In this document: positions 47,955-53,660 of the stretch, piece after piece
How the letters are laid out: the number at the start of each line of letters is the position of its first letter
How positions within the stretch are numbered: the stretch's first letter is position 1
Assembly: GCF_038025025.1 (NCBI RefSeq)
Contig: NW_027117343.1
Location: 992,001-1,056,000 of the forward strand
DNA length: 64,000 bases
Origin: Phyllosticta citribraziliensis
Lineage: Eukaryota
Direction: 5' to 3'
Made by a program: the position numbers and the translations under genes
Notes under the pieces: model-generated
What the model was told of the DNA's origin: nothing
Seen by the model: the letters and a program-made list of their open reading frames with translations, nothing else
Database searches by the model: none

Positions 47955-48572
47955 GAATGTGTGGTGTAGGTGGTTTCGTTGGTAAGCGCGCATCTATTAC
48001 AAGCATGCATAGAAGATAGAATTATCATGTCTATTCATTGATCATAGAGAGTACTTTAGTTGATGACGCATTCCAATTGAATCAATGGCACTAGCAGACC
48101 AGGCTCGCCAGAGTGCTTCAGTTGAAATGCTGCAAAGTCTTTCATTACGCAAGGCCTTCTACTGATCAAGCTAGCTAGCTACCGTTCGAAATCAACCACC
48201 ACCAATCTACCAAGCGACGATCCGAGCAGCCCAGAATTCAACGACCGGAGCCGAGTCAAGTCTCATGGATCAAAATCGGACGAGCAAGCAGAAGCACACG
48301 AGAGAAAAGACGACAGGATAAGGGTGGAGGCGCGCTTTATTGATTGTCCAGCTACCTATATCCGGTGAAGCCCGAAACGCCTGCCTGGTCGAAGAAAGGT
48401 GATTTTTCCATGTTGCATTGCTTTTGGGGGAAGAAGTGTGCTGGTGCAGAGATGGAAGCCAAGAAAAAGAGCGAAGAGCACCTCTGGTCAGCGAGGCCAG
48501 TGGGTCGTGTGGTCATCTGGGAGATTGTTAGCAGAGGATTTTGGTCGTGCGAGGGAAGGAAAACATACCAGC

Positions 48573-50260
48573 TTACAGCCTGGAGCCGTGGACGACCTTG
48601 TAGTCGACAATGAGCTCACTGCCCGAGTCGTTGATGACGAGGACGCGAATGGAGCCGCGGCCATCGTCAAAGGCCTCGGTGAGGCGCTTGAGGAGGTGGT
48701 CCTGGTCGTTGACGGGGAGGCCCTGCTTGACGTCGCCGCCCTCGGTCATGCAGACGACGCGGCCGTCCTCGCGGATGTCGAGCACGCGGTACTGCTTGAA
48801 GACGGGGCCGAGCATGTTCTGCACAATGACCGACGGCGCCGGGTTGGAGATGAAGCTCGACTCCTCGTGCAGCTGCTTGGTGAAGAGGTCGACGCCCAGG
48901 TACCGGTGCTGGCCCGTCTGCGACGACGTCGTGATGCGGATCACCTGGCAAGGGCGGCCCTGCAGGATCAGCAGGTCGCCGATGCGGATGTGGTGGCAGG
49001 GGATGGTGATGGAGTTGGAGGAAGCCATGGCGCTGATCCGGAGGGTTTCGGATACGAGGGTGCGGACGCGCCTAGGCTCGGAGACGTAGGTGGAGGGGGG
49101 AGGGGAAGGGCGGTGGTGAGAGTGGGAGACTGAGACGGAGCTGCGAGGCTTGGAAGGAGCTGTGTGGGTCTCCTTGATAACTACCTCCTCGCGGTCCGAC
49201 GTGGGGCGGTCGTGGTGGTGTTCGTGCTTGTGGTGAGAAGCGTGGCTGTGGCCGTGAACGGGGTGCAGAATGCGGTCTGCAGCTTTGTGGAGACCGTGAC
49301 GAAAACTGTGGTAGTGTCCTTCGTCGTCGTAATATCCCATGTCACGCTTGTGCTTGGGCGGGTCGACAGTTGTCCGAGAAGTCGTAGACTCTACTCGAAC
49401 TTGATCTTGGTGTGGGTGACGTCTCTCATTCACCTCTTCGGCGCGAGATCCGTGAATGGACTGGTGACGAAACTCGTAGCGAGAGTCGTCGACAATGGGA
49501 CGGGTATACTCGCGGAACTGACGTTCGTTGGAGTCTATTTGAGAGTCGGCGTAGGTGGTAGCCGGGCCGTGGAGTGTGTCGAATTTGCTGTCGTAGACGC
49601 GCTCCTTGAATTCAGTGCGGTCTGGGACGTTGATCTGAGCCTGTTCGTAGCGACGGTAAGGCTGGCGGTAGTCGTTGCTAGGAGAGGAGAGTCAGTGAAG
49701 TTCGAGGCTGGGGGGCATGAGGCGAGGTTATAGCTGCATGGGGCGGTGTCCCCCTGGTGGGTCGACGGGTGAGAAGATGCGGGTCCACGGAGCGAAAGGA
49801 ATTGTGCGTTTGTTTATGCATAATAAAACGAAAGCAAGCACTGACTAAACACTTACCGCTCACTCTCGAATTCAACCTCGAAACGATCGCGCTCAGTTCG
49901 AGGAGGACGGCGGTCGTAGTCCCTTTCGTAGATGCGAACCTCTTCTTCCTCTTCTTGGTGGACGGCGGGTCGGTGACGGTCTCGTTCGTAGAAGCGGACC
50001 TCTTCCTTGACGCGTTTGTCTTTGTGGACGGGGACGGCGTAGGCTGCTTCAGATGCGTGACCTTCCCGTCCGACGCGCGAAGGCTGATCAGGTAGATGTT
50101 GTTCGCTCTCTACCTTGATCTCTGTGTGTTCAGCTTTGGAAGCGTCACTCCGATACGAGGACGGGAAGACACTGAAGGGGATCGGGACGCGGGCGTCAAA
50201 GTCCAGATTGAATGGAGTCGGTGCGTCCTCTCTTGAAGCCCTTTCGAACTGCGTGGACAA
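48573..50260 (-). CDS. HEX1: Woronin body major protein HEX1 (eIF5A-like). Short form starts at AUG 49340 (255 aa); long form uses upstream exon ~50260-49857 and intron 49856-49678
   Basis: MGYYDDEG, His-rich segment, TIPCHHIRIGDLLILQGRPCQVIRI, LGVDLFTKQLHEESSF, C-terminal PTS1 SRL. The upstream exon has NLDFDARVPIPFSVFPSSYR and splices in frame. The long-form start is uncertain. Confidence 0.93.
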
Positions 50261-51471
50261 TTCGAAAGGAAGACAAGAAAGAACTTCTTGGCTCCTTGCG
50301 GGTTGAGGGGATTGAAGAAGAGAGAAAAGGGAGGAGGTGACGAGGCAGCGTATGTGGCTCTGGCAGATGGCAACTTAAGTGGGCGCACAATTGGCTGGGG
50401 GGAAGTGGGAAGAGTTGGGGATGTGCAGGAGTGAGATGATGAGGTGGAAGCTGACGACGGAAGCAATTGAGTAGGTGTGAGCGAGTCGGAGCTGCAGAGT
50501 GGAGACTGGGAGTGATGCGATGTCGAGGTAATTGGCGCGGTTGGGAGAAATTGTGGGGAGATGGTGTTTTGGTGATCCCCGTCGCGGCGTCAATCCCCCG
50601 GTCGTTCGCTGGGCGGCATGTGTTCAGGCACCCCCCACCCTGGCGATCCCTGGGCTCGAGGTATCCAGAGCAACTGAATGATTTCACTCGTCTCTTCCCT
50701 TGGCTTGTCCACCACCTCGTCGACGGCGACCAAACCCCCCAGCGAGAGCCTCCCTCTCTCGACGGCGACATGCCCGACCCCAAGAACTGGCGGTGTCGTC
50801 CAAACACCCTCGTACCACGCCGCTTGCTGCACCACGACGCCAGCCGCTCGTCCCGTAAGCGCCTCCATATCAGGCCAGACTCCACCGGCCCCATCGTGGA
50901 GCTCCGCCATTGGCCTCGTCTGCTCGTGTCGCTGCATCCTCCCTCAGGTCGACGCCGTTTCCCAGCCTCCCGCCGTCGACGGCTCCTCCCGCCAATTGGC
51001 CGCTGCCTGCCGTTGGCTCCTTAGCTCCATGTGCCTCCTGCACGCCTCCAGAATCGTCACCTTTTTGTCTCTGGACCCCACCCCCTTCTGGCGATAGACT
51101 CGCCGTACCGCCTATAAAGAGCCAGTTCACGTCAGCCACTTCGATTCGCTGTCCAGGAAGGATGGCGGACGCTGAGTTGGACGCGAGTCGCGTTGCCATG
51201 AAGCCAGCCAGCCGGCAACCAATTATGCACCCAAACAAACAAACACACTTGGCGCCCGAACTGACGGTGCCATTGTCTCCTTCAGCCTACTGTATGTAGC
51301 CTAGGGTATCGTATCGTCCAAGAAACAAGCGGCCCAACTCTATCAGGTCACGACATGTCCATCCCTTGATTCAGGCTGGCTGCTGTCTCCACCCAATCAT
51401 CCAGACCTCATCTACTCCAGCCCCAGGCCGCCCGTCCCCGCCACGTCCATCCCAATGCATAATGGCCATAC

Positions 51472-52668
51472 TCACAGTCCCGTCACAAACTTGAGAATCT
51501 CCTCCGCTACCGTTGTTGGCTGCTCTTGCTGTGGCCAATGGCCGGCTCCGTCCAAAATCACCGTGCCTCGAAAGTCGCCGCAGCTCTCTGGAAGCTTGTC
51601 AATCACTCCCGGTTGCTGATAGTTGCCCCAGTCTGCCTTTCCGCTCACAAACTTGCTAGGCACGTCGATCTTGCGTCCAGCAAACAGATTCAAGTCTTTT
51701 CGCTTCGGATCTGTCTGACTGCGGTACCAATTGAGTCCCCCCTGGAATCCCGTGCGGCTCCATTCGTCAACGTAGACTTTGAGATCTTCTTCAGGAAGCC
51801 ATCGCTCTGTCGCCTTGTCATCTTCTCCGGCCATGCTTGCCGACACGACCTCGGGCATTGACTTGTCCTGCGGCATGACATAGTACTCGGGCATCTTGGC
51901 TAGCTCCTCGGCGCTCCATTCCCTCAATGGACGGGGTTCGTTCTGGCTCCAGTCTGCGCTCTTGAGGTGATAGTAGCCTCGAAGATACTTGGCCATGCCT
52001 TGTGGTGGATTATCCCACTCGTGCGCCGCGCTCTCGGTGCTGTTATACCACTTGTAGTGCTTCTTGGGAGACGACAACTTGGCCAGATCCCCCTGGACGT
52101 CTCGACCAACAATTGTTTCTTGATCCTGAAGCTGCCGACTGTCTGGGTCTGCGTGAGCTACGTTGAATGGCAGCGGCGCTGGCGGCTTGTACGGATGGCT
52201 CATGAGCAAAGTGCTGCAAAAAATGTCCGGCCGCATCAACGCACACATGCTGGCAGACACGGCTCCAAAGTCGTGTCCGACAACACACCGGACTTTTTTG
52301 AATCCCAGCGCAGACACCAGAACGACCATGTCGGTGACCAATTGCGTCATGCTGAATTGGCCGAGATCGACAGAGGCAAAATCGGAAGCATCCCAGCCCG
52401 TGGTTCGTCCGTAGCCGCGTTGGTCAGGGGCAACGACATAGTATCCGGCGGAAGAGAGCGGCAACATGACTTTGCGCCATGAGTAGGCGAGCTCCGGAAA
52501 GCCATGGAGGAGCAATATCAAGGGCTTGGTGCGGGAAGGATCATATCCAGCCTCGAGAATGTGCAAGTCCAAGTCGGCGGCCGTGTTTGGGACGATGCGC
52601 GATGTAATTCCAGGGGGCAGCGGAAGAGGGGGTAGGTGTTGGTTCTTGGCCTGCGAAGATTGCCCCAT
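51472..52668 (-). CDS. Alpha/beta hydrolase, soluble epoxide hydrolase-like (intronless)
   Basis: LLLHGFPELAYSWRK, APDQRGYGRT, VGHDFGA, GFQGGLNWYR, GAGHWPQQEQP. Start placed at MGQSS (52668); upstream in-frame ATG at 52941 is less likely. Confidence 0.9.
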   Translation of the reverse strand: MGQSSQAKNQHLPPLPLPPGITSRIVPNTAADLDLHILEAGYDPSRTKPLILLLHGFPELAYSWRKVMLPLSSAGYYVVAPDQRGYGRTTGWDASDFASVDLGQFSMTQLVTDMVVLVSALGFKKVRCVVGHDFGAVSASMCALMRPDIFCSTLLMSHPYKPPAPLPFNVAHADPDSRQLQDQETIVGRDVQGDLAKLSSPKKHYKWYNSTESAAHEWDNPPQGMAKYLRGYYHLKSADWSQNEPRPLREWSAEELAKMPEYYVMPQDKSMPEVVSASMAGEDDKATERWLPEEDLKVYVDEWSRTGFQGGLNWYRSQTDPKRKDLNLFAGRKIDVPSKFVSGKADWGNYQQPGVIDKLPESCGDFRGTVILDGAGHWPQQEQPTTVAEEILKFVTGL

Positions 52669-53660
52669 TGCGGGTCGACAAAGGCAGGGCGTGGTGGTTG
52701 GATGTGGTTTCAGGGCTGCAGAGCGGCACGCCAGGCAGTCAAGTACTGTCGCAACTGAAGGCCGATTGCCATATGATGATGCGGGGAAGCGGCCATGGAG
52801 ATTTGCAATGATGGTGTGGGAGCGTCTGGTCGTGTGACTTGGGGTTTGAGGGCCGTCGGTGGTGGTTCCAATTGGCGATGGTGTGGGCGCGACTGGACCG
52901 TCCCGACCAGGCGACTGCACTGGCATAGCCGACGACGTCATAGCTGACAGGCCAACTGGGTGAAGTCGGGTCCCGTCGCTGTCGGTGATGTTTAGTCGGC
53001 CACATGCAGCTGATAGAACCCTCTGCGCTCTGGATATCCACAGTGTCTATGTACATGTTGACTTGGCGCGCTGCAGGGACAAAGGCTGCTTCTTGTTCCT
53101 TGCTGCGTGGGCGGCCCCGAGCTTCCTCCCGCTGACATGGGCATGTAGGTGGGTGTACCACTCCTGTATCAATCGTCGAGCTTGGAGACGTCAAAGGTTT
53201 GGCTCCTTTCCCAGTCGGTCGCAAAAAGGCAATGTTGCTACGCGCGTGCATGACAGGAGCCGGCCTGCCGGCTGGCCGGAGGTCATGTCGATGTCTTCGT
53301 CCCAAAGCTCCGCCACCGTCCCGGACCACCGATACCCCAGTGCACATCTCTTCCACAGCACCCGCCCACATCCTCAACCAGCAGCTTCACTTCTACATCA
53401 CGACCCGTCGCCTGCGAAACCAGCTTTCCCTACGTCACCGTCGCCGTCGCGTGGCTTGCTTGCGCCTTTGTGTTTCAGTCGTGTCAGCGCTTGCTCGAGC
53501 GCAGCCATCAGCTCCTCTACTACTTGGCCTTAGTTTCCCGAGCACCGCATGACATCAACTGTCAACACCCCTTGCTGCTTGTTCTTTTCCACCCTTTCCA
53601 CCCCTCCAGGCCCCTCATGCTAGGACGACCCTGATTGCGCCTTCTTGGTTCATCGCAAAG

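Follow-up and report, generated by a model that had tools for sequence, protein, structure and literature searches.

The Woronin body is defined by the protein HEX1, which for 25 years has been investigated as a small protein that crystallises by itself. Here we describe the HEX1 gene in a 64,000-nucleotide (nt) stretch of DNA from Phyllosticta citribraziliensis (contig NW_027117343.1, positions 992,001 to 1,056,000), which is called the window below and whose own numbering is used throughout. From a comparison of this gene with its relatives, we suggest that the HEX1 messenger RNA (mRNA) probably gives rise to a 484-residue form initiated at a CUG codon, with leaky scanning of other ribosomes to the AUG codons that follow.

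More than one form of HEX1/HexA is described for Verticillium dahliae and other fungi in a preprint (10.1101/2020.11.04.367870). These isoforms resemble the ones considered here in belonging to the same family, in differing at the N-terminus, and in keeping both MGYYDD and the C-terminal SRL. However, they differ by about 20 residues and arise by alternative splicing of an intron 3′ of the AUG, whereas the HEX1 extension described here comprises 229 residues 5′ of the MGYY AUG, has no AUG, and would depend on the choice of start site. Its authors see annotation error as the likely source of the 'hypervariable N-terminal extensions' in database entries. Among fungi, the nearest precedent is cpc-1 of Neurospora crassa (Ivanov et al. 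2017, PMC5487733). As its main text describes, cpc-1 has, throughout the Pezizomycotina, an open extension without AUG, with near-cognate codons that have a conserved A at −3 and G at +4, and automated annotations disagree on its start. HEX1 is similar in these respects.

Structure of the HEX1 messenger RNA

The HEX1/HexA gene, whose product is the major Woronin body protein, lies at 48179–50401 on the minus strand of the window, as do all of its features given below. The best protein matches are named HexA or Woronin proteins, and the stretch 48576–49340 passes the Pfam cut-offs of both eIF5A-like domains, with 30.7 bits for PF21485 (cut-off 27.1) and 32.9 bits for PF01287 (cut-off 24.2). The top named match over exon 1 is HexA of Phyllosticta citriasiana, with 94% identity; the source is a Dothideomycete near the named Phyllosticta species. 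The known form of 255 residues opens with MGYYDDEGHYHSF, the MGYYDD start, at an AUG (49338–49340) with G at −3 and G at +4. Its open reading frame (ORF) ends in HGSRL, with the peroxisomal signal SRL.

The frame of MGYY is open far to the 5′ side of this AUG, as far as an in-frame TAA at 50374–50376. Intron 1 (49678–49856; GT..AG, 179 nt, with 3 ATGs inside) divides the extension into an exon-1 part (49857–50203) and an exon-2 part (49341–49677) that is in frame with MGYY. The splice GAGCG/GTAAGT...TAG/CAACGAC keeps the frame (ER/NDYRQ). Contigs carrying the joint 49677/49857 come from three RNA runs, X2 (whose sequence is identical to the window), X3, and X14; run X1 has a loose end there. 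The RNA depth in intron 1 is 0.

Run X2 gives one contig from 50235 to the 3′ end, with a depth of 6337. The contig from X3 is colinear with the genome over 49857–50392, and that from X14, a relative, over 50046–50401. At 50401 the X14 contig runs into Illumina adapter letters, marking a fragment end, so the 5′ end of HEX1 mRNA is probably at about 50400 (50392–50401 from the ends of the X3 and X14 contigs). Contig ends are taken as hints, not as mapped transcription starts, and a contig is not proof of a single molecule; differences in contig depth were not used for ranking transcript parts. The X2 and X3 contigs span from 5′ of the CTG codon discussed below, through both AUGs, into the 3′ untranslated region (UTR). 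The extension is part of the mature HEX1 mRNA.

The candidate CTG codon and the AUG-free path to MGYY

Related loci were taken from metagenome and metatranscriptome contigs with the search pattern P[IV]P[FV]S[VIL]FPS[ST], which lies downstream of the candidate start codon; of the 198 loci confirmed, the comparison uses the best 80. All 80 have an in-frame stop 3–54 codons 5′ of the Leu in (N)LDFDARVP, with no in-frame ATG between them. The codon for this Leu is CTG in every one of the 48 distinct sequences, always with A at −3 (48/48) and G at +4 (48/48). At the adjoining Ala, Arg, Val, Pro, and Ile residues, these sequences use different synonymous codons. Five Leu columns that are invariant in the core served as controls, and in the same loci each of them uses 3–4 codons; CTG makes up 15% of the 1,080 Leu codons in the same ORFs. 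Only 3–4 codons are open before the CTG in 14 of the 64 distinct upstream segments, and in 6 of these 14 it is the sole near-cognate codon. Several of the loci with 3–4 open codons are spliced contigs resembling complementary DNA (cDNA), with ORFs of 423–480 codons that end in SRL.

In the window, this codon is CTG 50204–50206, in the context aatCTGgac, encoding the L of NLDFDARVP. The amino-acid conservation of the extension peaks in the 22 residues directly after the CTG, while 5′ of it there is conservation as nucleotides, in all three frames. These comparisons indicate that the start of the long form is most likely CTG 50206 and not TTG 50260, the codon proposed in an earlier note on this DNA. 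The long form would then have 484 residues, and not the ~502 residues given there, a length that falls with the TTG.

Full-length sequence was available for 24 distinct sequences, namely 20 cDNA-like contigs, 3 genomic loci without an intron, and the window itself, spliced by script. The extension in these is 209–363 codons long. Its frame is open in all 24, against 104 and 284 stops in the two alternative frames. The open frame follows from how the sequences were chosen, but 20 of them are independent cDNA-like contigs that have it. The extension is rich in Arg, Glu, and Asp, and is without Met, Cys, and Trp. A Pfam search with both of its halves found no family. The synonymous variation at conserved residues, together with the stops in the other frames, argues that the extension is under selection at the protein level.

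The codons next to the CTG show a further constraint. Codons +2 to +4 (50195–50203) are nearly frozen, with GAC in 45/48, TTT in 48/48, and GAC in 46/48, and a few residues further on the usual Phe codon is TTC (47/48), in contrast to the frozen TTT beside the CTG. Thus, the constraint after the CTG extends beyond +4. No conserved hairpin was found about 14 nt 3′ of the CTG, where alifold on 49 sequences (−9 to +75) gave −4.3 kcal/mol and only a 4-bp helix.

The interval from the CTG to the MGYY AUG is 624–1,086 nt in the 24 sequences and 684 nt in the window. The combined 19,566 nt contain a single ATG in any frame, which is the one at 49429 in the window, compared with 208.6 expected from base composition, 65.2 from a Markov model, and about 80 from codon shuffling per sequence. 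By contrast, the core coding sequence 3′ of the MGYY AUG contains 224 ATGs in 15,306 nt of the same sequences. The leader 5′ of the CTG, of which 102–321 nt are covered, has no ATG in 18 of the 20 cDNA-like contigs; the exceptions, L055 and L056, have one and two ATGs, respectively, 211–221 nt 5′ of the CTG. Fifteen sequences have A at −3 of their MGYY AUG; in 12 of them, ATGs out of frame reappear 13–115 nt 3′ of it, and in the remaining three the marker motif was not found. Leaky scanning is expected to leave such a signature, a depletion of AUG in every frame as far as the MGYY AUG, and these counts strongly support leaky scanning.

A full listing of ATGs on the minus strand places them at 50619, 49821, 49739, 49718, 49429, 49340, and further on. 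There is none in the 760 nt from 50616 to 49857, the nearest 5′ one being at 50619, and 49677–49341 contains only the one at 49429. The latter has a weak context, with T at −3 and A at +4, and opens an out-of-frame reading of 12 codons plus a stop (49391–49429). It is AGG in the relative X14 (place 49428), so it is not conserved. For the 1,097 exonic nt, 10.7 ATGs are expected from base composition and 4.7 from a first-order Markov model. The Poisson probability is about 0.05, and the scarcity of ATGs in the window alone is thus suggestive, not decisive.

The coordinates that the earlier note had read from the window alone are all correct. The in-frame splice of the extension exon onto MGYY is present in the RNA as the joint 49677/49857 in X2, X3, and X14; the ATG counts given there for 50616–49857 and 49677–49341 agree with the full listing; and the frame is open from the TAA at 50376–50374 to MGYY without an in-frame ATG. 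The NLDFDARVPIPFSVFPSSYR motif, associated there with long HEX1/HexA forms, does occur in long HEX1/HexA proteins of many Pezizomycotina, and annotated proteins of Aspergillus, Penicillium, Talaromyces, and Mycothermus also have the motif. The estimate of more than ten ATGs by chance is right for base composition (10.7), but the Markov model gives less than half of this (4.7). The alignment suggested there, for conserved near-cognate starts and AUG depletion, gave both (CTG in 48/48; 1 ATG in 19,566 nt). The general idea of non-AUG initiation with leaky scanning is therefore retained, with a conserved near-cognate codon, AUG depletion in all frames, and an extension present in the mRNA, but the codon is a different one.

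The leader hairpin and other possible origins of the long form

The leader contains a stem-loop with an outer and an inner helix at 50225–50284, the 3′ end of which is 18 nt 5′ of the CTG. In the RNAalifold consensus of 34 fungal leaders, 6 of the 17 pairs show compensatory changes. The covariation is between U-A, U-G, and C-G pairs, and the loop ranges from about 4 to 20 nt. The hairpin cells are paired in 93.6% of cases, versus 34–64% with slid partners. Changes on both sides of a pair occur in 34 cells, compared with 14.8 ± 4.2 in shuffles, 0 of 500 of which reach 34. The minimum-free-energy fold of the window's own sequence gives the same hairpin. An Rfam scan of 48100–50700 gave 0 matches at E ≤ 1. 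The hairpin may act in start-site tuning, in mRNA localisation, or as a DNA element. It would be located approximately at the exit side of a 40S subunit positioned on the CUG, and we speculate that refolding of the hairpin could retain the complex at this weak codon.

This structure bears on TTG 50260 (50258–50260). The earlier note was right that the codon has G at −3, and it is also in frame, lies within the X3 and X14 contigs, and is in a region where the frame is open in the window species. Homology was thought to begin there, and conservation is indeed found at this position, but it is that of nucleotides in an RNA hairpin and not of protein. The two conserved blocks around the TTG are the two strands of the stem-loop, and across fungi they occur in all three frames relative to the CTG, often with a stop between. 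Fewer than 18 codons are open 5′ of the CTG in 41 of the 64 distinct upstream segments, so that a start at the place equivalent to TTG 50260 is impossible there. This place is also deleted in 9 of the 34 aligned leaders. Furthermore, the abundant X2 contig begins at 50235, which is 3′ of the TTG and 5′ of the CTG. The TTG moreover lies inside the conserved stem. A 502-residue form initiated at this codon is very unlikely.

The hairpin also contains the CAG at 50249–50251, which has been considered as the acceptor for a further upstream exon with an AUG. In our reading of the alignment and fold, the TTG and this CAG pair together in the extended inner stem of the window. Such an upstream exon is used in annotated proteins of related Phyllosticta (P0002, P0188, P0191), with an ATG equivalent to ~50937/50910. 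However, the X3 and X14 contigs follow the genome without a break through the supposed acceptor and show no joint there, and X2 has no cover at 50236–50808. No such AUG is present in the 20 cDNA-like contigs of other fungi. The annotated N-termini of about 20 species in five classes have nothing in common 5′ of the motif, and models of five species from the Joint Genome Institute (JGI) are filed as 'partial' and begin without Met. The upstream exon, a case that the earlier note had itself raised against its proposal, is therefore barely credible.

Alternatively, the extension could be untranslated, the long 5′ leader being free of AUG only to let ribosomes reach AUG 49340. The window protein is currently annotated with 255 residues, and the V. 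dahliae authors (10.1101/2020.11.04.367870) take such extensions for annotation errors. Yet 209–363 codons remain open in the 24 sequences against the many stops in the other frames, the motif is kept as protein while its codons vary synonymously, and an invariant CTG with its context would be purposeless in an untranslated leader. We consider this explanation highly improbable. It is unlikely, though somewhat less so, that most of the short form is made from a transcript of its own, begun at an internal start site and distinct from that of the long form, with a ratio that is not set by leaky scanning. In favour of this, the contigs do not show transcript starts, and the 5′ ends may be heterogeneous, since the X2 contig ends at 50235 and those of X3 and X14 at about 50400. 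However, every observed 5′ end is 5′ of the CTG, and without scanning it is difficult to account for an AUG desert that covers three frames and 624–1,086 nt in 24 sequences.

Other observations also weigh against initiation at CTG 50206 followed by leaky scanning. The compared sequences are kin, so the counts are not of independent events, and they come from the best 80 of the 198 loci. The CTG–AUG interval of the window is weak evidence by itself, with 1 ATG in 684 nt against 2.4–7.3 expected, and the absence of frame-0 stops from the 24 sequences follows from how they were chosen. The annotated Macrophomina phaseolina protein P0207 begins at an ATG in frame 5′ of the CTG, and P0001, a transcript-derived protein of a close relative, starts with 'MW', 31 codons 5′ of the CTG. 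We know of no reported HEX1 band of about 55 kDa. Immunoblots of HEX1 are reported to show small isoforms from alternative splicing, as described in the V. dahliae preprint (10.1101/2020.11.04.367870).

The starts of P0207 and P0001 are 31–34 codons 5′ of the CTG and are in frame there. In the Botryosphaeriaceae, the frame of the leader block relative to the CTG differs from that in the window. It is possible that P0207 and P0001 represent lineage-specific AUG or other extra starts, or else artefacts of gene calling. The initial 'M' of metagenome and Logan proteins (P0001, P0007, P0121–P0146) was rejected as evidence for an ATG because such callers also start at GTG and TTG; 'MSSFR' in P0007, for example, is 'LSSFR' in the annotated P0207. 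In one lineage (P0130/P0206, a cluster of 33 members), the residue at the candidate codon is M if called as the start and V if internal. This suggests, from the protein, that GTG, another near-cognate codon, is at the start position. Within one genus, gene models of 151, 255–257, 514, 525, 565, and 602 residues are found.

The 5′ neighbour of HEX1, at 51249–53046 on the same strand, is an alpha/beta-hydrolase gene (Abhydrolase_6/1), with a poly(A) site near 51249, as marked by a loose end with a T-run in X2. A colinear contig from run X1, 50295–51622, bridges the intergenic region at lower depth. This contig contains many ATGs; it was rejected as a HEX1 leader and is considered read-through from the upstream gene or DNA.

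Short forms, proposed mechanism, and known systems

A third in-frame AUG, at 49026–49028, lies just 5′ of the eIF5A-like HEX1 core (48576–49025, identified with Pfam). The core ends in SRL (48576–48584) and is followed by the stop codon TAA (48573–48575). In the window, the 312 nt from the MGYY AUG to AUG 49028 are free of ATG. The window and eight related sequences (9/9) have G at −3 of the MGYY AUG and no ATG until a conserved in-frame AUG 216–312 nt further on, whereas this second ATG-free stretch is absent from the 15 sequences with A at −3. This link between G at −3 and the second stretch rests on few clades. Proteins of 255 residues (P0190) and 151 residues (P0189) are both recorded for the window itself. 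Further 3′, a 52-nt intron in the 3′ UTR (48517–48568) begins 4 nt past the stop codon, with the joint 48516/48569 seen in X1, X2, and X3. The last exon (48179–48516) is 3′ UTR, and its 3′ end probably lies near 48179, as the X2 contig extends 21 nt past 48200.

The proposed mechanism is as follows. A single spliced HEX1 mRNA, with its 5′ end near 50400 and introns at 49856–49678 and 48568–48517, would present several start sites in succession. Some scanning ribosomes, a minority, would initiate at the near-cognate CUG 50206, which has an optimal context and is 18 nt 3′ of the hairpin, presumably with Met as the first residue. The 484-residue product would consist of the 229-residue extension rich in Arg, Glu, and Asp, with the 22-residue motif at its N-terminus, joined to the known protein with its SRL. 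The remaining ribosomes would pass 684 nt that appear to be kept free of AUG by selection and initiate at AUG 49340 to give the 255-residue form. Given G and not A at −3 of this AUG, and the 312 ATG-free nt that follow, some ribosomes probably reach AUG 49028, giving the 151-residue core.

A broader proposal, which we offer tentatively and consider rather doubtful, is that the CUG, a weakened AUG, and a second AUG form a ladder on one mRNA that fixes the stoichiometry of the 484-, 255-, and 151-residue forms. In this proposal, the hairpin would tune use of the CUG, and the mixture would be reset when start-codon stringency shifts, as it might under stress or at the growing hyphal tip. The long form, with a disordered extension unable to pack in the crystal, might cap or coat the lattice and so affect the size or tethering of Woronin bodies.

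If the CUG-initiated form exists, it is an overlooked proteoform of a textbook organelle protein, with a conserved extension of 209–363 residues and an invariant 22-residue head in at least five classes of Pezizomycotina. It would also explain the wide disagreement of HEX1 gene models, the 'partial' JGI models, and the dismissal of the extensions as annotation errors. The locus appears to be an unusually clean natural case of start-site choice. With its invariant CUG, its AUG desert reaching 1.1 kb, and its covarying hairpin, it should be well suited as a reporter of start-codon stringency in filamentous fungi.

Initiation at an in-frame near-cognate codon followed by leaky scanning is a mechanism of a known kind; for HEX1, we found no earlier report of it. 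Full-text literature searches gave no report that connects HEX1, HexA, or the Woronin body with leaky scanning or with starts at non-AUG, CUG/CTG, or near-cognate codons. FGF2, MYC, and PTEN-L are classic cases in which a minor long form is initiated at a CUG that lies upstream, in frame and in good context, while the major form is initiated at the AUG downstream. HEX1 resembles these genes in having an upstream in-frame CUG and a downstream AUG. In those genes, a downstream hairpin often assists the start, whereas in HEX1 the conserved structure is upstream and none was found downstream. A 2020 study of fungal peroxisomal isoforms made by non-AUG starts, cited in PMC11842775, also concerns peroxisome-bound proteins with non-AUG isoforms. 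In that case, to judge by the title of the study, the non-AUG start makes the peroxisomal form, while the two forms of HEX1 share the C-terminal signal, with the extension as a proposed new N-terminal module. With respect to cpc-1, hex-1 is unmentioned in the main text of Ivanov et al. (PMC5487733). As described in that text, the cpc-1 leader has upstream ORFs with AUG and several candidate codons. HEX1, by contrast, has one invariant CUG, an AUG-free path of 624–1,086 nt, and a conserved hairpin just 5′ of the candidate start.

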